In this document: piece after piece, positions 2,106-36,200 of the stretch
Layout: every line of letters begins with the position of its first letter
Position numbering within the stretch: position 1 is the stretch's first letter
UHGV virus genome: UHGV-0126763
Source of the DNA: a virus
Strand: one strand, 5' to 3'
Length of the DNA: 37,920 nucleotides
Notes under the pieces: generated by a model
Seen by the model: the letters and a program-made list of their open reading frames with translations, nothing else
The model's database searches: none
Told to the model about the DNA's origin: nothing
Position numbers and translations under genes: made by a program

Positions 2106-3000
2106 TGGCAACCTCCAGTTTCGCTTTGCATTCTATGTAAATGGCTTGTACGTTCTGCTGCAATTTCATTCCAGATGTCAGGCGATATGCTTCTGCAAAA
2201 TATCGCTTCAAATCATCCATCTTTTCTGCCTGAGCCATTTCATCACAAAGAAGTTGTGCTTTATCCGTTATTTCCTGCTGGCGTTTCCGTTCATCTTCGC
2301 GGATATCTTCCTCTGATTTGTACGGCATAACTGGTTCAGTCCATACACCTTCTTCTTCGTTTAGTACGTGAATAGCACTATCAAGACGTGATGCCTTAGG
2401 CCAATACTTGCTTGCACGCTTTACGACCGTCTTTCGCGCCATCTCATTCCAGTGATTTACCCATGGCCCTTTATCGCTGAATGCCGCCTTGCTTGTTTTC
2501 CTTACAGCCTCAATTTCAGCCAGACTCATCTCTTCCGTTAGATAATCACCTGCTGGCGTCTTAACTGTGCAGTAAACGCCAACGATATCACCACGATCAC
2601 CGAAGGCGTTGTATTTATGGGTTGGTGCTTTATCAAGCCCGTTTGACTCATAGGTATCGTTAGCATGAACAAGTTTTGCCTGACCCCATGAGATAACACC
2701 AGACTCCATTGCAATATGGAGCAATCCCATATAGCTGATATCAAGGCAAACCATGCCGTCGCGCGGAACCAGATAAGCCAGTTTGCTGGCCGGGTTTAAG
2801 GTGATGCCGATCGCCGCAACATTGATGATGGCGTTCTGTGCGCTGGTTGGATTTGCCAGTGCTGTTTTAGCCAGGTAATCATTTTTCTGGAAATACTGAA
2901 TTGCAAACTGGCTTTCCTTAGCCCATGTCACCGTCTGTTCAGTCAATGCTCCGCAGAATAACTGCTCCTGCTGTTTAACGAATTCAACGATATTGCTCAT
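2089..3000 (-). CDS. recT: RecT-family single-strand annealing recombinase
   Basis: 303 aa; GPWVNHWNEMARKTVVKRASKYWP segment matches the conserved RecT core as recalled from E. coli Rac RecT; ATG with GGAG RBS. Confidence 0.85.
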   Translation of the reverse strand: MSNIVEFVKQQEQLFCGALTEQTVTWAKESQFAIQYFQKNDYLAKTALANPTSAQNAIINVAAIGITLNPASKLAYLVPRDGMVCLDISYMGLLHIAMESGVISWGQAKLVHANDTYESNGLDKAPTHKYNAFGDRGDIVGVYCTVKTPAGDYLTEEMSLAEIEAVRKTSKAAFSDKGPWVNHWNEMARKTVVKRASKYWPKASRLDSAIHVLNEEEGVWTEPVMPYKSEEDIREDERKRQQEITDKAQLLCDEMAQAEKMDDLKRYFAEAYRLTSGMKLQQNVQAIYIECKAKLEVASEQTI

Positions 3001-3308
3001 GCAGCTTCTCCATAAATATGTCTGCGTTTGAATATTGCGAAGGCATATTCAGCCTTAACTCTTTCGGTTATTGCATCCCAGAACCATTCAGCGGCTTTTT
3101 CCTGATAGTCACAGTCATCATCTTCCAGCCAGTCGATAGCGTCCTTAGTGTGTTCATCTGGCTTATATGAGCGAAGCATTTCGCTTATTGGGTCGCAACG
3201 TTTGCAGAGGCGATCAACTTCACTGTTGATTCGTTCGTAATCATCATCGGTAAAACTTGCGATGATTTGCGATATTTCACGCTTATCATTCAGAGTCAGA
3301 ATCATCAT
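2997..3308 (-). CDS. Hypothetical phage early protein
   Basis: 103-aa acidic ORF, ATGATG start, stop overlaps recT start. Confidence 0.55.
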   Translation of the reverse strand: MMILTLNDKREISQIIASFTDDDYERINSEVDRLCKRCDPISEMLRSYKPDEHTKDAIDWLEDDDCDYQEKAAEWFWDAITERVKAEYAFAIFKRRHIYGEAA

Positions 3309-3393
3309 CTTTCTCCTGTTCTTTGTGCTGATTGAGCATTTCTTTCATCTGACGAATGAATTCTTCGTCTGACCAGTTATCTGTAAAACTCAT
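3286..3393 (-). CDS. Small hypothetical protein (35 aa), not in ORF track
   Basis: Hand translation MSFTDNWSDEEFIRQMKEMLNQHKEQEKDDDSDSE; stop overlaps ATGATG start of downstream gene; weak RBS. Confidence 0.3.
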   Translation of the reverse strand: MSFTDNWSDEEFIRQMKEMLNQHKEQEKDDDSDSE

Positions 3394-3624
3394 GGACGGC
3401 CTTGTTGTTTCAAAATATCCCAAAGCTTTTCGAGCAAACTTTTCATTCTTGGTTGTTTAAAGTCTGCTCCGGTTAAAATGTTTTTTCGTGAATGCTGCAC
3501 CGATAAAATCGGGTTGAAAGGGCGAACCGATGCCGCCCCTGCAATAGCGAACTGTTGCATAGGATGCTCCTTCTGTTTGATTGCATAACGAAAACGCCTC
3601 GAATGAAGCGTTATTGGTATGCAT

Positions 3625-3648
3625 ATAAAAAGGCCCTCACATTGGAGG
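3625..3648 (-). terminator. Intrinsic terminator-like hairpin in early-left operon (tL-like)
   Basis: Minus strand reads GCCCTC-caatgt-GAGGGCC followed by TTTTTATATGC. Confidence 0.45.
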
Positions 3649-3778
3649 GCAAAGAAGATTTCCAATAATCAGAACAAGTCGGCTCCTGTTTAGTTACGAG
3701 CGACATTGCTCCGTGTATTCACTCGTTGGAATGAATACACAGTGCAGTGTTTATTCTGTTGCTTATTCCAAAGCAAAT

Positions 3779-4021
3779 TTAACCATCAACAAACTCTTCT
3801 GGTAATTTATCAACCAGTTGATGACTTATTATCAGCCATTTGCCATCCTTCGTTTCGTATGCATATTTCTGGTCTTTTATCATCATGTGTTCGGCTACTG
3901 CCCTAACTGCCTGATCGGTGACATCTTCTCTCTTTCCTACCCACATTCCTTTTTCAGTGTTTAATGTTCCTTGAAAAATACGACCGCTTAATGGGCTTGC
4001 GCCCATAGTTTTTACTCTCAT
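3779..4021 (-). CDS. Hypothetical phage early protein
   Basis: 80-aa ORF immediately downstream of N; ATG with GAGAG RBS. Confidence 0.6.
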   Translation of the reverse strand: MRVKTMGASPLSGRIFQGTLNTEKGMWVGKREDVTDQAVRAVAEHMMIKDQKYAYETKDGKWLIISHQLVDKLPEEFVDG

Positions 4022-4031
4022 GTATCAGCTC

Positions 4032-4358
4032 TCAAATAAGTGGTTTGCTGCCTAATTTCATTTTCTGGCGACCAACACAAGTCACACCCATTTCACTGCG
4101 TGGCTTGCTGTACCATGTGCGCTGATTCTTGCGTTCAATACGTTGCAGGTTGCTTTCAATCTGTTCGTGGTATTCAGCCAGCACCGTAAGGTCTATCGGA
4201 TTCAGTGCGCTTTCTACTCGTGATTTCGGTTTGCGATTCAGCGAGAGAATAGGGCGGTTAACTGGTTTTGCGCTTACCCCAACCAACAGGGGATTTGCTG
4301 CTTTCCATTGAGCCTGTTTCTCTGCGCGACGTTCGCGGCGGCGTGTTTGTGCATCCAT
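4032..4358 (-). CDS. N: Antitermination protein N
   Basis: N-terminal arginine-rich motif MDAQTRRRERRAEKQAQWKAANPLL matches lambda N as recalled; AGGAG RBS; nutL lies immediately upstream. Confidence 0.9.
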   Translation of the reverse strand: MDAQTRRRERRAEKQAQWKAANPLLVGVSAKPVNRPILSLNRKPKSRVESALNPIDLTVLAEYHEQIESNLQRIERKNQRTWYSKPRSEMGVTCVGRQKMKLGSKPLI

Positions 4359-4556
4359 CTGGATTCTCCTGTCAGTTAGCTTTGGTGATTGGATGGCCGG
4401 CGCTGAACCCCGGCTTACTGGTTAGAGCGCCCGCACTACCAGTGACGCTGTCTTGAGGCGCAGATTGGTTACTGCTTGCCATGAGCGCTGTTTATACATT
4501 GGTCGAGCATCAGCCTGCTCATTCATCCAATCCCAAAGCCTTCTGCTTTGAATGCT

Positions 4557-4587
4557 GCCCTTCTTCAGGGCTTAATTTTTAAGAGCG
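4557..4587 (-). promoter_or_regulatory. nutL: nutL (boxA CGCTCTTA plus boxB GCCCTGAAGAAGGGC hairpin)
   Basis: Minus strand reads CGCTCTTAAAAATTAAGCCCTGAAGAAGGGC between the OL operators and N. Confidence 0.85.
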
Positions 4588-4631
4588 TCACCTTCATGGT
4601 GGTTAGTGCGTCCTGCTGATGGCTTAAAATA

Positions 4632-4712
4632 TACCTACAGGTAAAACCGTTGTCTATACCTGCAGGTAAATAAAATTGGTGTGAGAGTTTACCTGTTTGA
4701 ATTTTCAGGTAA
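4632..4712. promoter_or_regulatory. OL operator cluster (PL region)
   Basis: TACCTACAGGTA at 4632-4643, perfect palindrome TACCTGCAGGTA at 4657-4668, split half-sites TACCTG-N10-CAGGTA at 4690-4711; same motif family as the OR sites. Confidence 0.6.
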
Positions 4713-4730
4713 TTAATTTTTTGGATTGAT

Positions 4731-4754
4731 ATAAAAAAGCCCGCTTTGCGGGCT
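4731..4754 (-). terminator. Intrinsic terminator after the repressor operon
   Basis: Minus strand AGCCCGC-aaa-GCGGGCT stem-loop followed by TTTTTTAT, directly after the stop of the 4766..5062 gene. Confidence 0.7.
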
Positions 4755-4765
4755 GAAAGGAGATG

Positions 4766-5062
4766 TCAGAAGCTATTTGGATTGCTTGGCCATTGCGGCA
4801 ATTTTGATTCTACCGGGGTGTGTTTGGGTTTGAGTCCGTTTAAGTAGTCAAGACGCTCAATGGCGCATTTATACATAGCAATCTGATCTGATGACATGTC
4901 GTCATATGACATGCCTTTGAACTTCTTAATTATCGTTTCTGCCTCATGTATAAGATTCTTCTTCCTCATGAGTTCAGCTGTATGCTTAGAGCTTACAGGA
5001 GATAACTTTGCCCATATGAAGCAGATGATTACAACAGCGACTACTATGCCGGGTATAAACAT
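4766..5062 (-). CDS. Small membrane protein co-transcribed with repressor (rex-position moron)
   Basis: ORF-track frame 4766..5080 begins with TTG overlapping the cI stop; in-frame ATG at 5062 with GAGGA upstream gives MFIPGIVVAVVIICFIWAKL, a single N-terminal TM helix plus about 75-aa soluble domain. Confidence 0.6.
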   Translation of the reverse strand: MFIPGIVVAVVIICFIWAKLSPVSSKHTAELMRKKNLIHEAETIIKKFKGMSYDDMSSDQIAMYKCAIERLDYLNGLKPKHTPVESKLPQWPSNPNSF

Positions 5063-5076
5063 TTGCTGCTTTATCC

Positions 5077-5763
5077 TCAAACTTTTGGCAGATCGTCCTG
5101 GTCTACGTACCTGGTGTGTTTCACAATAGCTGAAACAAAATGCATTTTATCAACTTCTTCAACAGGAAGAGTGATTGGGCGGTGATCACTGTTTATGCTA
5201 CTAAACTGATAATCACCGTCTCTTGTTTTGTTCATGATCTTTATCATGTTGTGACCGTCTTTGGTCCTTACAAAGACTTCATCACCTGGATGTACTGGCG
5301 TATTTGGTTCAATAACAACATATTCTCCTGACTGAATCCTTGGCCACATGCTGTCACCCTTAACCTTCAGACCGTAAGCATCTTTATCGCCGCTGTAGAT
5401 GCTTAACCAACCGGATCTGAATTCAATCATATCCACTGAGCCATCAACTCCCAAAACGGCTTCACCAATTACCGGAACAAAACCCGCACGAACGTTACCC
5501 GCAAACTCAAGATGGTCCGTAGCTCCAGCTTTACCATCTGCAAGCATGTCCATCCATCCGCGTGGGAGATTAAAAGATTTTTCAATTAGTTCCATCATAT
5601 CGTCAGCAATGCGTTTTTTTCCGCTTTTTCCTTCCGGATACAGCATTCTGGAAACGTATGATGGTTCCCTTTCTATTCGACGAGCCAACTCTGAGGCCTT
5701 TCCATTACAGAATCGGTCTCTTATCTCTATCAGCCTTAGTCGTCTTTGTTCGTATTTATCCAT
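5077..5763 (-). CDS. cI: CI-like prophage repressor (HTH N-terminal domain, S24 LexA-like peptidase C-terminal domain)
   Basis: 228 aa; C-terminal GDSMWP serine motif and later Lys typical of S24 autoproteases; divergent from cro-like gene across the operator cluster; no SD before ATG, consistent with a leaderless PRM-type transcript. Confidence 0.85.
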   Translation of the reverse strand: MDKYEQRRLRLIEIRDRFCNGKASELARRIEREPSYVSRMLYPEGKSGKKRIADDMMELIEKSFNLPRGWMDMLADGKAGATDHLEFAGNVRAGFVPVIGEAVLGVDGSVDMIEFRSGWLSIYSGDKDAYGLKVKGDSMWPRIQSGEYVVIEPNTPVHPGDEVFVRTKDGHNMIKIMNKTRDGDYQFSSINSDHRPITLPVEEVDKMHFVSAIVKHTRYVDQDDLPKV

Positions 5764-5769
5764 GATTTA

Positions 5770-5797
5770 ATTCTATCTTTGATTACCTGCCGGTAAA
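5770..5797 (-). promoter_or_regulatory. Candidate PRM-like promoter for the repressor
   Basis: Minus strand TAGAAT -10 about 6 nt upstream of the cI ATG, weak TTTACC -35 overlapping the leftmost OR site; inferred by analogy to lambda PRM. Confidence 0.35.
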
Positions 5798-5835
5798 TAA
5801 CCTATGGGTATTGATTTGCTTTTTACCTACAGGTA
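5784..5835. promoter_or_regulatory. OR operator cluster (three sites)
   Basis: TACCTGCCGGTA 5784-5795, weaker AACCTATGGGTA 5799-5810, TACCTACAGGTA 5824-5835; tripartite arrangement between divergent cI and cro. Confidence 0.65.
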
Positions 5836-5839
5836 AACT
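5811..5839 (+). promoter_or_regulatory. Candidate PR promoter
   Basis: TTGATT -35 at 5811-5816, 17-nt spacer, TAAACT -10 at 5834-5839 overlapping the rightmost operator; 32 nt upstream of cro start. Confidence 0.45.
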
Positions 5840-5871
5840 CATCTTATTCAACAACGGGAAGGAGATAGCAA

Positions 5872-6102
5872 ATGGAAGAACTCCGCTTGTATCTGAACTC
5901 CCTTTCACTGGAAGAGCAGAGAGAATTTGCCACCAAGTGCGGAACTTCTATCGGCTATTTGAGGAAAGCACTTAGCCGTAATCATGAATTGGGCGCAGCA
6001 CTTTGTGTTCTGATTGAGAAGTTCAGCAATGGTGAAGTGACTCGCAAAGACCTTCATCCGGTTGATTGGGAAAGCATCTGGCCTGAATTAATGGCCGCTT
6101 AA
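5872..6102 (+). CDS. cro: Cro-like HTH regulator
   Basis: 76 aa, first gene rightward of OR, GGAG RBS 7 nt upstream. Confidence 0.65.
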   Translation: MEELRLYLNSLSLEEQREFATKCGTSIGYLRKALSRNHELGAALCVLIEKFSNGEVTRKDLHPVDWESIWPELMAA

Positions 6103-6110
6103 GTTATTAA

Positions 6111-6142
6111 CGCTCTTACACATCCCAGCCCTGAAAAAGGGC
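6111..6142 (+). promoter_or_regulatory. nutR: nutR (boxA CGCTCTTA plus boxB GCCCTGAAAAAGGGC)
   Basis: CGCTCTTA at 6111-6118 and hairpin GCCCTGAAAAAGGGC at 6128-6142, between cro and cII. Confidence 0.8.
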
Positions 6143-6218
6143 ATTACCAGAAACAAATCTCTATGGTTTTGCGTTTCTTTGCGAAGCCAACTCTATCTAA
6201 TCATTAAGGAAATTATCT

Positions 6219-6500
6219 ATGGGTACTATTGCAACTAAAAGCAAGAAAGCGGCTCGCATCGAGTCAGCCTTGCTGAACAAACTGGCACTGATGGGGCAGA
6301 AGACATTCGCTCGAGCAATGGGGGTTCCTGAATATCAGGTAAGCCGATGGAAGAATGGTTTCTTCTCGCAGGTAAGCATGATGCTGGCTGTTCTGGAATA
6401 CGGAATCGAAGACGATGAAATGGCTGAGCTGACTAAGCGGCTTGCCAATTACCTGACAAAAGAAAAAGCCCCGAAGAACGGCGAATTCTTCGAGGCCTGA
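6219..6500 (+). CDS. cII: CII-like transcriptional activator
   Basis: 93 aa; ARIESALLNK...SRWK...MLAVLE segment resembles lambda CII as recalled; AGGA RBS. Confidence 0.8.
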   Translation: MGTIATKSKKAARIESALLNKLALMGQKTFARAMGVPEYQVSRWKNGFFSQVSMMLAVLEYGIEDDEMAELTKRLANYLTKEKAPKNGEFFEA

Positions 6501-6534
6501 TGTAGAAAGACTGGATCAATCCACAGGAGTCATT

Positions 6535-6696
6535 ATGACAAAACGTCGTAAGAAATACCAGGAAAAAGAAGAGATTCGACACCCTGATTCACCTGAGGGA
6601 TTAGTGGTAGCCGCAGCAAATAACAGGGCGTTCGCAGAGCGCCTTGTTGGTGTTTACAGACTAGCCAAAGCAGGAGTGAAACATGGGCGTCGTTAA
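6535..6696 (+). CDS. Small basic hypothetical protein (53 aa), not in ORF track
   Basis: ATG at 6535 preceded by AGGAGT; hand translation [53 protein letters not shown]; stop overlaps the O-like gene start. Confidence 0.35.
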   Translation: MTKRRKKYQEKEEIRHPDSPEGLVVAAANNRAFAERLVGVYRLAKAGVKHGRR

Positions 6697-7504
6697 GTTA
6701 GCTGATTACAGGCCTCAACTGGAGGTCGTGGAGCATCGCGTGGCAGATACCGAAGATGGTTTCATGCGCGTTGCTAACGAGATTACCGACAGTCTGCTGA
6801 TGGCTGATTTAACCGTCCGGCAGTTGAAGGTGATGCTCGCTATCATGCGCAAGACATACGGATTCAATAAGCCGATGGATCGACTCACAAACACGCAGAT
6901 AGCAGCCATGACAGGTATTCATCACACTCATGTTTGCGCTGCCAAGCGCCAGCTTATTGAGCGTAAATTCCTCATTGCTGATGGCGTGAAAATCGGAGTG
7001 AACAAGGTGGTTTCGCAGTGGATTAGCCAGGACAGCTTAACATTAGCTAAAACAGCTAATAAAACATTAGCCAAGTCAGCTAATGGGTATAAGCCAAGTC
7101 AGCTAAACACAAAAGACAATATACAAAAGACAATAAATACAAATACCCCCTTACCCCCTAACGGGGGCGGCGATGGGCAGGTTAAACCTGAACGTCGCAA
7201 GGCAGAACGAATCGACTACGAATCCTTCCTGAACGCCTACAACACCGAAGTCGGTGACAGACTTCCACATGCTGTTGCGGTCAACGAGAAACGCAAACGT
7301 CGCCTGAAGAAAATCATTCCGCAACTGAAAACGCCAAACGTGGACGGTTTCAGAGCGTATGTCAGGGCGTTTGTGCATCAGGCCAAGCCGTTTTACTTCG
7401 GAGACAACGACACGGGCTGGACGGCAGATTTTGATTACCTGCTGAGGGAAGACTCGTTAACGGGAGTTCGGGAAGGGAAGTTTGCAGACAGGGGGATTGC
7501 ATGA
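6683..7504 (+). CDS. Replication initiator, O-like (P22 gene 18-like)
   Basis: 273 aa, AGGAG RBS, origin-like iterons embedded mid-gene, followed by helicase gene with ATGA overlap. Confidence 0.8.
7040..7140. repeat. Candidate replication origin: iterons plus AT-rich tract inside the O-like gene
   Basis: GCCAAGTCAGCTAA occurs twice (7070-7083, 7092-7105) with related TTAGCTAAAA/CAGCTAAT units, then A-rich tract with AAAAGACAATA twice. Confidence 0.5.
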
Positions 7505-8877
7505 GACAGGATATCGAAGCGAGCGTTATCGGTGGCCTGCTGATTGGTGGATTAACACCAACCGCCAGCGACGTTCTGGCAACGCTTGAGCCGGAAGCGT
7601 TTTCAATTCCGCTCTACCGGAAAGCCTTCGAGGTTATCCGCAAGCAGGCGCGAAACAGAAACCTAATCGACGCGCTGATGGTTGCCGAGGAGTGCGGAGA
7701 GGAGCATTTCACGTCAATCCTGATGACCAGCAAAAACTGCCCGAGTGCCGCAAACCTGAAGGGATATGCCGGAATGGTCGCGGATAACTATCACCGCCGT
7801 CTGGTGCTGGAAATCATGGATGAAATGCGTGAACCAATTCAGAGCGGAACCATCGACGCATCGAGTCAGGCGATGGATGAACTTGTAAAACGTCTCTCAG
7901 CTATCAGAAAGCCCCGTGACGAGGTTAAACCTGTACGGTTAGGGGAAATCATCACTGACTACACTGACACGCTTGACAGGCGTCTGAGGAACGGAGAAGA
8001 GTCAGATACCCTGAAGACCGGAATCGAAGAACTTGACGCCATCACCGGAGGGATGAACGCAGAAGACCTGGTGATTATCGCCGCTCGTCCTGGTATGGGG
8101 AAAACCGAGCTGGCGCTGAAGATTGCCGAAGGCGTTGCAAGCCGCGCTATTCCTGGTTCTGACGTCCGGCGCGGAGTGTTGATTTTCTCGATGGAAATGA
8201 GCGCATTGCAGATTGCAGAGCGAAGCATTGCCAACGCCGGGAGGATGTCGGTTAGCGTGCTGCGAAATCCTGCATCGATGGATGACGAAGGCTGGGCGCG
8301 TGTTGCTAACGGCATGAGTCAGCTTGCAGATTTGGATGTATGGGTAGTCGATGCCTCGCGGTTATCGGTCGAAGAAATACGCTCAATCGCAGAACGGCAC
8401 AAACAGGAAAATCCAAACCTGTCACTCATCATGGCGGATTATCTTGGCCTGATTGAGAAGCCGAAAGCAGACCGCAACGACCTCGCAATTGCTCACATCT
8501 CCGGAAGCCTGAAGGCGATGGCGAAAGACCTGAAAACGCCTGTTATCTCCCTGAGTCAGCTTTCGCGCGATGTTGAGAAGCGACCAAACAAACGCCCGAC
8601 AAACGCAGATTTGCGTGATTCAGGAAGCATTGAACAGGACGCAGACTCAATCATCATGCTCTATCGGGAAGCGGTATATGATGAGAACAGTAGCGCCGCG
8701 CCATTTGCTGAAATCATCGTGACGAAAAACCGTTTTGGCTCGCTTGGTACAGTTTACCAGCGGTTCTGTAACGGACACTTTGTTGCATGTGACCAGGATG
8801 AAGCCAGACAGATTTGCACAACATCAAATGCACCTGCTGCGCGTGGCAGACGATATGCACAAGGGGCTGACGTATGA
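7501..8877 (+). CDS. Replicative DNA helicase, DnaB family (P22 gene 12-like)
   Basis: 458 aa; Walker A GMGKTE; DnaB-like N-terminal [14 protein letters not shown]. Confidence 0.9.
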
Positions 8878-8902
8878 CCATCTACATCACTGAGCTAATA
8901 AC

Positions 8903-8934
8903 AGGCCTGCTGGTAATCGCAGGCCTTTTTATTT
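8903..8934 (+). terminator. Intrinsic terminator after replication genes (tR2-like position)
   Basis: AGGCCTGC-tggtaatc-GCAGGCCT stem-loop followed by TTTTTATTT. Confidence 0.6.
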
Positions 8935-8950
8935 GGGGGAGAGGGAAGTC

Positions 8951-9391
8951 ATGAAAAAACTAACCTTTGAAATTCGATCTCCAGCACATCAGCAAAACGC
9001 TATCCACGCAGTACAGCAAATCCTTCCAGACCCAACCAAACCAATCGTAGTAACCATTCAGGAACGCAACCGCAGCTTAGACCAAAACAGGAAGCTATGG
9101 GCCTGCTTAGGTGACGTCTCTCGTCAGGTTGAATGGCATGGTCGCTGGCTGGATGCAGAAAGCTGGAAGTGTGTGTTTACCGCAGCATTAAAGCAGCAGG
9201 ACGTTGTTCCTAACCTTGCCGGGAATGGTTTTGTGGTAATAGGCCAGTCAACCAGCAGGATGCGTGTAAGCGAATTTGCGGAGTTATTAGAGCTTATACA
9301 GGCATTCGGTACAGAGCGTGGCGTTAAGTGGTCAGACGAAGCGCGACTGGCTCTGGAGTGGAAAGCGCGATGGGGAGACCGGGCAGCATGA
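8951..9391 (+). CDS. ninB: NinB recombination protein
   Basis: Start chosen at [10 protein letters not shown] (ATG 8951, GGGAGAGGGAAG RBS) giving 146 aa, matching lambda NinB length and sequence as recalled; ORF-track start 8933 is upstream in frame. Confidence 0.8.
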
Positions 9392-9561
9392 TGCGATGTT
9401 ATCGGTGCGGTGAATGCAAAGAAGATAACCGCTTCCGACCAAATCAACCTTACTGGAATCGATGGTGTCTCCGGTGTGAAAGAACACCAACAGGGGTGTT
9501 ACCACTACCGCAGGAAAAGGAGGACGTGTGGCGAGACAGCGACGAAGTATCACCGACATAA
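9388..9561 (+). CDS. ninD: Small Cys-rich nin-region protein, NinD-like (57 aa)
   Basis: ATGATG start overlapping the ninB stop; [11 protein letters not shown]...WCLRCE zinc-ribbon-like cysteines; length matches lambda NinD. Confidence 0.55.
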
Positions 9562-9704
9562 TCTGTGAAAACTGCAAATACCTTCCAACGAAACGCTCCA
9601 GAAATAAACGCAAGCCAATCCCAAAAGAATCTGACGTAAAAACCTTCAATTACACGGCTCACCTGTGGGATATCCGGTGGCTAAGACATCGTGCGAGGAA
9701 ATGA
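9528..9704 (+). CDS. ninE: NinE-like small protein (58 aa), not in ORF track
   Basis: GTG start 4 nt after AAGGAGG; hand translation [57 protein letters not shown]; overlaps neighbours in other frames. Confidence 0.5.
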
Positions 9705-35156: not shown

Positions 35157-36200
35157 TTACCCTGTAAATATGCTAAGGAATGTTTTTTGAAATGATTTGT
35201 TTTTATTTTTAGCGTTAATTAATGCTACTATACTAACTTGCAGTTTTACCATTATTGTAGCAAGTGTGTAAGTAAGTACATAACTTATTAAATAATGACT
35301 ACCTATTTTTTGACACATTATGATAAATGGGATGTGCCATAAATAAATCCAAATGGAGTTTTGGGATATGAATGAAACAACCTGCCATAATCTTAAAACC
35401 TTAAGTAAAAGAACAGCTTTGTTTGAGAGCAGATAGACTACGAATATCATAAAGGTTGCATAGGACATGTAATATATCCCAGGTGGGTACTTGTCTGACT
35501 GAGTTGGATTAAAGGCACCCAAGGTAATAATGTAATATGCAGTCATGGCAGAAAATAATAATCCACAGATAATGGTTGGGGGTAATAATTCTTTATGATC
35601 AGTGCTTGCAATTTTATAACCAATGATGAAAGCAAGTGTATAAGATATAGAGTTTGATATGTATGTCCCCAAAAGTATATAAATGCTCAACTTGTCAATT
35701 CCATTATACAATGGAATTAACTGGCTATTAATTAATAAAAATGACGCGGATATTGTTAATATCGCTTTTAAATTAAGTGTGTATAGTTTTGGAGGAATGA
35801 AAGTGGCTATCACTGATATTATGAAAAAGAGTCTAATAACCCACACATAACCAAGCCCACTGGATAATGCGAATGATGTTATTATAATTGACTTATTGTA
35901 AGTAAAGTCTTTTATATTAAAAATAAACGAAATGATTTCATTTATTAAGAAAAATGCCGCGAAGAAAATCCAAGTTGGTAAAACTAAACGGCGAAATCGA
36001 GAATTAATATATTTTATTCTGTTGCTATGGCGATGTTCGGTTACACAAAAGGACATCCCCATAACCATAAACATTAAAGGAACATCAAAGTTTCGCAGTT
36101 GAGCTAGCCATAAAGGAGGCTGGACATGGGCTAGAATGATTAGAGAAAGCCCGAGAAATCTTAAAAAATCTATTTTATCAATACGCATGACTTCGTCCAT
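35157..36200 (-). CDS. Acyltransferase family 3 integral membrane protein (putative O-antigen acetyltransferase)
   Basis: 347 aa, about 10 predicted TM segments, N-terminal IDFLRFLGLSLIILAHV motif typical of acyltransferase-3 (OafA/Oac-like); strongly AT-rich; sits between tail fiber genes and integrase. Confidence 0.8.
   Translation of the reverse strand: MDEVMRIDKIDFLRFLGLSLIILAHVQPPLWLAQLRNFDVPLMFMVMGMSFCVTEHRHSNRIKYINSRFRRLVLPTWIFFAAFFLINEIISFIFNIKDFTYNKSIIITSFALSSGLGYVWVIRLFFIISVIATFIPPKLYTLNLKAILTISASFLLINSQLIPLYNGIDKLSIYILLGTYISNSISYTLAFIIGYKIASTDHKELLPPTIICGLLFSAMTAYYIITLGAFNPTQSDKYPPGIYYMSYATFMIFVVYLLSNKAVLLLKVLRLWQVVSFISQNSIWIYLWHIPFIIMCQKIGSHYLISYVLTYTLATIMVKLQVSIVALINAKNKNKSFQKTFLSIFTG

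Follow-up and report, generated by a model that had tools for sequence, protein, structure and literature searches.

In the classical lambda imm434-type hybrids, lambda N and the lambda nut sites lie around a foreign immunity region, and phage 434 itself has the same layout, with lambda-type N and nut sites flanking a non-lambda immunity region. The 46 lambdoid mEp phages have been sorted into 19 groups by immunity (Kameyama 1999, cited from the summary in PMC11893012). One phage, mEp043 (JQ182734 / NC_019706 / PV340537), is plaque-forming, and mEp043 c-1 has served as an annotated lambdoid model phage (PMC9836094).

We compared the 37,920-bp stretch of DNA analysed here (the window) with lambda (NC_001416), 434, 21, P22, HK97 and H-19B and mapped the breakpoints, using base-level alignments to lambda. 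The control region at 4019-6544 shares the gene order N - nutL - OL - orf104 - cI - OR - cro - nutR - cII with mEp043, whose cI and cro products are 100% and whose cII and N products are 99% identical to those of the window. At the DNA level, identity to mEp043 amounts to 96.9% in 4019-4400 and 98.5% in 4532-6544, with a replaced patch in the N leader between these blocks. Within the common region, the apical segment of the N leader is a 198-nt allele in the window versus a 268-nt allele in mEp043, the nutL boxA reads CGCTCTTA versus TGCTCTTA, and the centre of OL2 is TG.CA versus TA.TA. Beyond N on the left and 6544 on the right, the two genomes differ: mEp043 encodes an O protein and a primase/helicase, whereas the window carries HK97-type replication genes and myovirus-like late genes.

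The likeness to 434 comprises N (94.5%) and 4533-4630 (97%) and ends at the pL region. Phage 434 has a different repressor and Cro, 14-bp operators and hex after cI, and to the right of nutR its cII and O/P are annotated as lambda-like, unlike in the window. The nearest distinct repressor family is that of H-19B and Stx1 phages (cI 49.8% identical; 68.6% DNA identity in the C-terminal domain), but H-19B has an HK97-like N protein of 127 aa and a different nut type. With lambda, the window shares the N/nut module detailed below, ninB (98%), the placement of OL1 and OL2 over pL and, probably, a near-leaderless cI mRNA from pRM. It differs from lambda in the unrelated cI, cro and operators, in having orf104 in place of rexAB, in the apex of the N leader, and in its replication and late genes.

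Taken together, we give a probability of about 0.92 to the reading that a natural lambdoid temperate phage or prophage has its immediate-early control region at 4019-6544 and that two independent specificity systems are combined there. This reading builds on sequence identities, breakpoints and population-level reassortment that were observed directly.

N and nut sites of lambda specificity

The pattern CGCTCTTA-N(6-12)-GCCCTGAARAAGGGC has exactly two matches in the window, at 4557-4587 on the minus strand (nutL) and at 6111-6142 on the plus strand (nutR), whereas 100 dinucleotide-preserving shuffles gave an expectation of 0; the nut sites are exact and non-random. The nutL site is identical to that of lambda in boxA (4580-4587, CGCUCUUA), spacer and boxB (4557-4571, GCCCUGAAGAAGGGC), and the enclosing 90-bp block from the pL start through nutL (4532-4621) shows 98.9% identity to lambda 35494-35583. 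In nutR (boxA 6111-6118; boxB 6128-6142, GCCCUGAAAAAGGGC), the window and lambda differ at one spacer base (ACATCCCAG versus ACATTCCAG). At both sites boxA CGCUCUUA lies 5' of boxB, with spacers of 8 and 9 nt as in lambda. The two boxB 15-mers, GCCCT-GAAGA-AGGGC in nutL and GCCCT-GAAAA-AGGGC in nutR, have 5-nt loops as in lambda and fit the lambda-specificity hairpin GCCCU-GAARA-AGGGC (5-bp stem, pentaloop) exactly. Placement is lambda-like as well, with one site preceding N in the pL leader and the other between cro and cII on the pR transcript. The preliminary description had reported lambda-like boxA and boxB elements at both positions, on which alignment and pattern search now agree. It had also stated that the boxB hairpins differ in the loop only, which holds as GAAGA versus GAAAA; the loop it gave for nutR, "GAAAAA", had one stem base counted in.

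The N gene (4032..4358, minus strand) encodes a protein of 108 aa with 91% identity to lambda N. The two proteins agree at every position of residues 1-64, a stretch that takes in the arginine-rich motif MDAQTRRRERRAEKQAQWKAAN, which had already been recognised from the sequence. The protein matches Pfam N36 (E=1.5e-26) and the lambda N chains 6gov, 5lm7, 5ms0 and 1qfq in the PDB. With the N motif, boxB, boxA and nut placement all of the lambda kind, the system is predicted to have lambda N/nut specificity. The C-terminal 22 residues differ from those of lambda N, whose C-terminal region contacts RNA polymerase, and full equivalence to lambda N is assumed here. The 3' end of the gene shows 94.7% identity to phage 21 (4019-4112) and 100% to HK97 and H-19B (4031-4085), that is, judged by these identities, it is 21/HK97/H-19B-like inside an otherwise 'lambda' N module. 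Downstream of N on the pL transcript, a terminator scan placed a candidate intrinsic terminator at 3633..3650 (minus strand), in a block with 94-95% identity to lambda, 434 and 21; the aligned position in 434 is annotated as a terminator. RNA polymerase modified by N would have to read through it.

The mEp043-type immunity region and a proposed control scheme

Nucleotide similarity to lambda was not found anywhere between 4622 and 6110. The cI repressor gene of the mEp043 immunity type occupies 5077..5763 on the minus strand. Its product and mEp043 CI are the same (100% identity), the second-best match being the 49.8% identical repressor of H-19B and Stx1 phages, whereas lambda CI matches over only 55 residues at 31% in the S24 domain. 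The protein contains a Pfam Peptidase_S24 domain (E=1.4e-17, residues 104-204), a GDSM serine motif followed by a lysine, and A-G dipeptides at two places (KAGAT, FAGNV); these features place it among the LexA-like (S24) autocleaving phage repressors, with predicted RecA-dependent cleavage. A phmmer search of the PDB with CI returned nothing at E<=0.01, so that no solved repressor, lambda CI included, was detectably similar in this search. The cro gene (5872..6102, plus strand; 76 aa), 100% identical in mEp043, encodes a YdaS/Cro-type protein (PHROG 35) that matches the PDB entries 8co2 and 8c7k, which both carry the name 'Cro' (E about 1e-10); similarity to lambda Cro was not detected. The cI and cro products and the TACCTNNNGGTA-type operators described below thus set this region apart from lambda immunity, whose operators are 17 bp long, in line with the claim of the preliminary description that repressor, cro and operators are not lambda-like. 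The identities of repressor, Cro and operators instead assign it to the mEp043 immunity type, apart from the small differences in the centre of OL2.

The operator pattern has 15 matches on both strands, compared with 3.4 expected, and five cores cluster in OL and OR, over the predicted pL and pR. On the left, a promoter scan identified a candidate pL, TAGACA-17-TATATT (4628..4656, minus strand; 10/12 matches), which aligns with the -35 and -10 elements of lambda pL. The predicted 16-bp operator OL1 (4630..4645, core TACCTACAGGTA) lies 25 bp from predicted OL2 (4655..4670, core TACCTGCAGGTA), which overlaps the -35 element. A split inverted repeat at 4689..4712, TTACCTG-N10-CAGGTAA, is kept in 5/5 immunity-family relatives and is possibly OL3; its half-sites are one helical turn further apart, an atypical spacing for a third OL element. 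On the right, OR (5782..5837) comprises three predicted operators with cores at 5784-5795 (OR3), 5799-5810 (OR2, one mismatch to the core pattern) and 5824-5835 (OR1). A cI mRNA almost without a leader would start from a candidate pRM on the minus strand, TTTACC-16-TAGAAT (5797 to 5770). The putative pR on the plus strand (TTGATT 5811-5816, 17-nt spacer, TAAACT 5834-5839) was read from the sequence and was missed by the promoter scan; pR and pRM are both weak matches to consensus.

Between OL and cI lies orf104 (4766..5080, minus strand), which by its position would be co-transcribed with cI, in the place of lambda rex and 434 hex. It was taken from the open reading frame list and codes for a small protein whose N-terminus has a hydrophobic stretch and whose residues 7-104 match PHROG 10450 (unknown function); a Pfam match was not obtained. 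The gene is 94-100% conserved across loci sharing mEp043 immunity. In a PADLOC search for defence systems, neither orf104 nor the DUF7446 protein nor a 53-aa ORF gave a match. A predicted intrinsic terminator at 4738..4754 (minus strand; a GC-rich stem of 7 bp and then a T run) would end the cI-orf104 immunity operon. To the right of nutR, the mEp043 allele of the activator gene cII (6219..6500, plus strand; 49% protein identity to lambda cII) overlaps a TTGC-N6-TTGC site on the minus strand (6231-6244), likely belonging to pRE, and an oop-like terminator from the terminator scan (6466-6498, minus strand).

From these features we infer operator occupancy, promoter assignments and functional N, nut sites and CI as follows. 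In the immunity module (~4606-6117), the LexA-like CI would bind the 16-bp TTTACCT-NN-AGGTAAA operators at OL and OR and thereby shut off pL and pR, while pRM is probably autoregulated, judging from the geometry; Cro would serve as the lytic counter-repressor. Once transcription starts from pL and pR, N would bind the nascent RNA of nutL and of nutR, each with boxA and a boxB pentaloop, through its arginine-rich N-terminus and together with host Nus factors would render RNA polymerase resistant to downstream terminators. Since N would recognise only boxB and CI only its operators, the two systems could reassort through the short conserved sequences between them; the likely sites of recombination are, left of the immunity genes, the initial transcribed sequence of pL and, to their right, nutR boxA/boxB.

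Module boundaries and reassortment in the population

Lambda homology breaks off at 4621/4622, at +1 of pL between nutL and OL, and resumes at 6110/6111, between the cro stop codon and nutR boxA. Pairwise alignment, the check suggested in the preliminary description, therefore located the junctions between the nut sites and the immunity genes, as had been expected there; N and nut proved to be lambda-like and the repressor region not, and neither of the contrary outcomes (N/nut unlike lambda, or a lambda-derived repressor region) appeared. On the left, the boundary is a short linker at the pL transcript start (4606..4621, minus strand, CATCAGCAGGAC...), which lambda, 434 and every relative of the mEp043 immunity type have kept: lambda homology stops at 4621 and 434 homology at 4630, and the homology of immunity-family relatives begins at 4606-4608. 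On the right, lambda homology starts at nutR boxA (6111) and extends for only about 35 bp, followed by the diverged cII and by replication genes of HK97 type (98.5%).

The same immunity region is present in 52/5,426 complete E. coli genomes, mostly from clinical isolates, and in 31 IMG/VR or GTDB loci, defined by a cI identity of at least 97%. All 27 loci in which N could be scored have lambda-type N, and 30/31 have lambda-type nutR. Across these 30, boxB of nutR is invariant, and variation is found in the spacer and at the first base of boxA; boxB of nutL is exact in all but two readable related loci, which keep a G-U pair. The combination of modules is thus common in E. coli and already known. 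In relatives whose cI is 78-85% identical, the sequence shared with the window is confined to 4606-4721 and 5085-6117; their boxB sequences belong to four other types, and their N genes are P22- or 21-like. Conversely, the exact lambda nutL of 118 IMG/VR loci adjoins at least 17 immunity-side sequence clusters, most commonly imm434-type sequence (44/118).

How the right boundary arose deserves closer consideration. It may be argued that this lineage has no right-side junction and that the ~35-bp nutR island is part of an anciently diverged, homologous cro-nutR-cII segment, held by selection to match a lambda-type N. Indeed, the flanking cII is a true homologue of lambda cII (49% protein and 66% DNA identity), it has travelled together with the immunity region in both the window and mEp043 (98.5% through 6544), and the invariance of boxB next to a variable spacer and first boxA base would fit such constraint. 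However, identity drops sharply from ~97% to ~66%, which is more typical of a mosaic joint than of graded constraint, and 8/31 loci with the same cI turn lambda-type exactly after the boxB GGGCAT and continue into a lambda-type cII flank, so that nutR has demonstrably been used as a crossover point in this population. We consider selection in place of a junction unlikely, and the two views are not mutually exclusive at the right side. According to the population data, the breakpoints are real exchange points.

The layout is also that of laboratory-made lambda imm-X constructs, and 434 shows lambda-type N and nut sites around a non-lambda immunity region. Almost nothing outside N/nut and ninB is from lambda, however: the late genes resemble those of the myoviruses SEN34, Omnitron and vB_EcoM-689R2, and the same arrangement occurs in the 52 independent chromosomes and in many IMG/VR prophage contigs. 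An origin from a laboratory hybrid is accordingly extremely improbable. Many E. coli lambdoid prophages are defective, and N and the nut sites could be inactive, decaying remnants in a cryptic prophage. That is improbable too, though slightly less so, as the regulatory reading frames are all intact (N, cI, cro, cII, O-like and DnaB-like), boxB is conserved across related loci, its two nutL variants retaining G-U pairing, and mEp043 with the same module forms plaques (PMC9836094).

We thus favour the natural combination of two specificity systems. The proposal of a natural immunity-swap hybrid stands insofar as N/nut specificity is lambda's and immunity is not, but the locus is not 'lambda with swapped immunity', given that only ~35 bp right of nutR are lambda-like before the diverged cII and the HK97-type replication genes. 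Nor does it record a special hybrid event: the joining of lambda nutL to at least 17 immunity clusters in public viral contigs points to routine lambdoid mosaicism, and this exact combination is already represented by one sequenced phage, mEp043, and dozens of prophages. As an example of antitermination and immunity specificities assorting independently, which is textbook modular mosaicism, it matters little. What the population data add are unusually clean base-level positions of two exchange points, the pL +1 linker and nutR boxA/boxB, and for annotation the prophage can be labelled imm-mEp043 with lambda-type N/nut.

A structured element in the N leader

More interesting than the combination of immunity and nut sites is a side observation in the N leader. 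Between nutL and the N ribosome-binding site, the 198-nt leader allele of the window is predicted to form a long hairpin (4376..4544, minus strand) with a non-lambda apical structured element, as indicated by folds, leader alleles and a consensus structure; 4388-4531 is not lambda sequence. The ~140-nt element consists of a closing stem and five or six hairpins, with 99.4% of cells paired, and the consensus structure from 33 sequences contains seven pairs with compensatory changes. The conserved long leader hairpin beneath the element is presumably the one that in lambda forms the RNase III site controlling N translation, a subject reportedly covered by Wilson et al. 2002. A one-line statement in PMC9032294 also refers to RNase III and N translation.

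Rfam yielded no match at gathering thresholds in the whole window and only chance-level matches at E<=5 in 3900-6700; likewise, no model in the Rfam 15 scans matched the nut sites or the N leader. A high-copy repeat or MITE was rejected, since the patch occurs in only 142/5,426 E. coli genomes at 1-4 copies (median 1) and is thus not a dispersed chromosomal repeat. A correspondence to the EHEC prophage anti-sRNAs AgvB/AsxR was rejected as well; these are located downstream of PR' and not in the N leader (PMC4104026). A small minus-strand ORF of 34 codons, read by eye from alignments, is unlikely to be coding; its stop is not conserved and its ATG lies inside the closing stem. Our covariance model R1 did not detect the lambda/434 leader allele at E<=1, and we therefore do not claim a single family for all leader alleles; what the element has in common with the mEp043-type and other leader alleles is limited to its closing stem and 3' hairpin.

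We tentatively suggest, at somewhat less than even odds, that 4376-4544 is a structured RNA module not yet described, which moves between phages by horizontal shuffling. Processing might release it as an immediate-early RNA, or it might act in cis to regulate antiterminator expression. Confirmation would mean that a regulatory region among the most thoroughly studied in biology has a further conserved RNA domain, and would suggest an exchangeable RNA cassette in the leaders of N-type antiterminators. At least five unrelated N-type antiterminator genes have the element immediately upstream, and non-lambdoid phages from the genera Jilinvirus and Uetakevirus carry a sister form. The lambda-N locus has at least seven leader alleles, the element among them, that are interchangeable and reassort freely with immunity type.

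N, the nut sites and the immunity genes between them

A search of the window for the pattern CGCTCTTA-N(6-12)-GCCCTGAARAAGGGC yielded exactly two matches, as compared to none expected in shuffled sequence: 4557-4587 on the minus strand (nutL; boxB 4557-4571, boxA 4580-4587) and 6111-6142 on the plus strand (nutR; boxA 6111-6118, boxB 6128-6142). These are the positions at which the preliminary description had placed lambda-like nut sites, and base-level alignment with lambda (NC_001416) agrees, as nutL is identical and nutR differs only by one base in the spacer. The boxB loops are the pentaloops GAAGA and GAAAA, exactly those of lambda; the loop formerly read as GAAAAA was a miscount. Among loci of the same immunity (L008-L043, L088), nutR boxB does not vary and nutL boxB is constant except for two copies, in which the change preserves a G-U pair. 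In these loci, nutL boxA begins with C, T or G, and the nutR spacer has two variable positions.

The N gene (4032-4358, minus) was identified by its similarity to lambda N, to Pfam N36 and to the solved lambda N chains 6gov, 5lm7, 5ms0 and 1qfq. Its product is 91% identical to lambda N, with all 10 differences confined to the last 44 residues. Residues 1-64 are identical; the arginine-rich motif that binds boxB and the segment that binds NusA both fall in this stretch, in keeping with the lambda arginine-rich motif noted before. A mosaic joint lies inside the 3' end of the gene: the final ~25 codons, together with adjoining 3' sequence (4019-4112), resemble phage 21 (94.7%) rather than lambda, and 4031-4085 is 100% identical in HK97 and H-19B. 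The C-terminus of N (PRSEMGVTCVGRQKMKLGSKPLI) differs from that of lambda because this joint brings in a 21/HK97/H-19B-type 3' end.

The genes between the nut sites are of another origin. The cI product (5077-5763, minus; Pfam Peptidase_S24) has only a 55-residue stretch in common with lambda CI, at 31% identity. For the YdaS/Cro-type protein encoded by cro (5872-6102, plus), which is related to PDB 8co2 and 8c7k, no similarity to lambda Cro was found, nor was any nucleotide similarity to lambda found in 4622-6110. The repressor, cro and operators are thus not lambda-like, as had been claimed.

The preliminary description had also expected recombination junctions between the nut sites and the immunity genes, to be located by alignment with lambda, 21, 434, HK97 and P22. 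BLAST comparison of 3000-9600 with these phages, mEp043 and H-19B located them. Lambda/434 N (4057-4387, 94%) is followed by a patch without match among the seven reference phages (4388-4531) and by a segment 98.9% identical to lambda (4532-4621; in 434 as far as 4630). Next, 4622-6110 matches mEp043 only, apart from weak similarity to H-19B where the C-terminal domain of CI is encoded, and is succeeded by a nutR island that is lambda-identical except for one base (6111-6145), cII (6146-6509; 66% DNA and 49% protein identity to lambda), HK97 replication genes (6510-8905, 98.5%) and lambda ninB (8874-9392, 98%). The lambda breakpoints therefore lie at the aligned +1 of pL (4621/4622) and directly before nutR boxA (6110/6111). 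Hence, the proposed immunity-swap hybrid holds insofar as lambda N and nut sites enclose a non-lambda immunity region; however, the window is a mosaic of many parents rather than lambda with an exchanged immunity.

At the cII stop/O start in the oop region, a 33-bp stretch (6510-6542) is common to all reference phages except P22, with 91-100% identity in lambda, 434, 21, H-19B and HK97, whose flanks differ on both sides; this resembles a conserved linker where two modules meet. Two ORFs for small, conserved proteins flank the regulatory region: one for a DUF7446 protein (3779-4021, minus; PHROG 1578) directly downstream of N, and a 53-aa ORF (6535-6696, plus; PHROG 1331) that lies after cII and before the O-like gene, at the place of the annotated HK97 gp53. 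In 12921-37920, the late and structural genes are not of lambda type; their best matches are in the myoviruses Citrobacter phage Omnitron (92.8% over 67% of the query), vB_EcoM-689R2-type phages of E. coli and Salmonella SEN34, whose baseplate and tail tape-measure genes are typical of phages with contractile tails. The window thus couples early genes of lambdoid type to a morphogenesis module of myovirus type.

Exchange of the mEp043-type immunity module

Megablast against 50,697 phage records returned three that cover at least 80% of 3700-6700, all of them phage mEp043 (98.2% identity). Its CI matches that of the window at 100% identity, the runner-up being the H-19B/Stx1-phage CI at 49.8%. 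DNA identity to mEp043 is 96.9% over 4019-4400 and 98.5% over 4532-6544, and the mEp043 contig agrees with the window in cro (100%), cII (99%) and N (99%). At a coverage of at least 80%, 4380-6110 was also found in 52 of 5,426 complete E. coli genomes, with up to 99.0% identity. Lambda nut sites around a non-lambda immunity are thus a correct observation, yet an ordinary one that is already in databases. Phage mEp043 is from the Mexican E. coli phage collection, whose 46 lambdoid isolates form 19 immunity groups (Kameyama 1999, cited after PMC11893012), and PMC9836094 used mEp043 c-1 as a model lambdoid genome with manual annotation.

Loci encoding cI relatives were taken from IMG/VR and GTDB genomes. 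Among the 31 loci with cI at least 97% identical, N is of lambda type in all 27 with a scorable N gene, and nutR in 30. In eight of the 31, the mEp043-type flank TACCAGAAAC after boxB (GGGCAT|) is replaced by the lambda-type flank CAAATTAAACC and cII is lambda-like, which places a crossover within or at nutR. Relatives with cI of 78-85% identity have only two segments in common with the window, 4606-4721 (OL/pL to the first 14 transcribed bases) and 5085-6117 (cI to nutR boxA); their boxB sequences are of four other kinds, and their N genes resemble those of P22 or 21. Looked at from the nut side, at least 120 IMG/VR stretches contain an exact match to the 30-nt lambda nutL. Among the matches listed, 118 had enough flank, and here nutL is joined to at least 17 immunity-side sequence clusters (imm434-type 44, an unnamed type 32, window/mEp043 type 11, true lambda 10, and 13 smaller clusters). 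On these population data, reassortment of immunity versus N/nut specificity is routine. The junctions are short sequences common to all types, namely CATCAGCAGGA at pL +1, and boxA.

Predicted operators, promoters and regulatory circuit

As judged from the sequence, the operators are probably 16-bp palindromes, TTTACCT-NN-AGGTAAA, a pattern with 15 matches over both strands as compared to 3.4 expected. Pattern search places putative cores at 4632-4643 and 4657-4668 (OL) and at 5784-5795, 5799-5810 and 5824-5835 (OR). OL1 and OL2 overlap a candidate pL (TAGACA-17-TATATT) that is rated good by promoter prediction and aligns with lambda pL, and OR1 overlaps a putative pR (TTGATT-17-TAAACT). A gap of 7 nt separates a candidate pRM (TTTACC-16-TAGAAT) from the cI ATG, so that cI mRNA initiated there would be nearly leaderless; its calculated start lies ~41 bp from the centre of the upstream OR2, which is the lambda geometry. 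A TTGC-N6-TTGC site on the opposite strand within the 5' end of cII and an oop-like terminator (6466-6498) would fill out a lambda-like circuit.

By analogy with lambda, CI of mEp043 specificity would hold pL and pR off. Upon derepression, the nut RNAs would recruit N of lambda specificity together with Nus factors, and the N-modified polymerase would pass terminators such as that predicted at 3633-3650; 434 has an annotated terminator at the aligned position.

A split inverted repeat, TTACCTG-N10-CAGGTAA (4689-4712), lies ~35 bp upstream of the pL -35 and consists of operator half-sites one helical turn farther apart. It is kept in five of five immunity-family relatives, even with the OL1/OL2 cores turned to TACCCATGGGTA, which argues that it may not be a CI operator. 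The reading frame orf104 (4766-5080, minus) overlaps the stop codon of cI, precedes the terminator of the immunity operon and takes the position of rexAB in lambda and of hex in 434. It encodes a hydrophobic N-terminal stretch and matches PHROG 10450 (unknown function), Pfam and PADLOC searches being without match, and is a candidate for a prophage-expressed exclusion or conversion gene.

A structured element in the N leader

Between nutL and the N ribosome-binding site lies a structured element of ~140 nt (4376-4544, minus) that is absent from lambda; the patch 4388-4531 is unlike both lambda and mEp043. The distance from boxB to the N ATG falls into five classes among same-immunity loci: 110, 157/158 (lambda and 434), 172, 198 (window) and 268 nt (mEp043); 183 and 243 nt occur in other loci. 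At the lambda-N locus, the element is one of at least seven interchangeable leader alleles of 110 to 268 nt. All alleles have the same flanks, AGCATTCAAAGCAGAAGGCTTTGG... and ...CCAAAGCTAACTGACAGGAGAATCCAG, which in predicted folds pair into a single long hairpin. It takes in the N ribosome-binding region, and its upper stem varies between alleles yet remains complementary. In lambda, the leader hairpin is an RNase III site controlling N translation. According to PMC9032294, RNase III exerts positive control on N mRNA.

Consensus folding of 33 distinct copies (RNAalifold) gives a closing stem with five or six hairpins. Compensatory double changes occur in 7 of 42 pairs, 99.4% of cells are paired as compared to 28-47% with partners slid, and the covariation score of 0.151 (0.050 in shuffles) was reached by none of 500 shuffles; independent covariation events are few because the copies are closely related. 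A 34-codon ORF inside the element would offer a coding explanation, which we consider unlikely. No Rfam match to the element was found. A covariance model built from its alignment (R1) detected the closing stem and 3' hairpin in other leader alleles; the lambda allele was not found by this model. Our best guess is that the element serves as a platform for RNase III and N-translation control, and it may be released as an immediate-early RNA.

Related copies occur in the fetched loci L111-L192. The apical segment of the window allele is present in 11 phage records and 142 E. coli genomes, and its 27-nt core in 95 IMG/VR stretches with 43 distinct flank contexts. At least five unrelated arginine-rich proteins of N-like type are encoded directly downstream of the segment, and a sister form of the element is found in a Jilinvirus and a Uetakevirus, both non-lambdoid phages.
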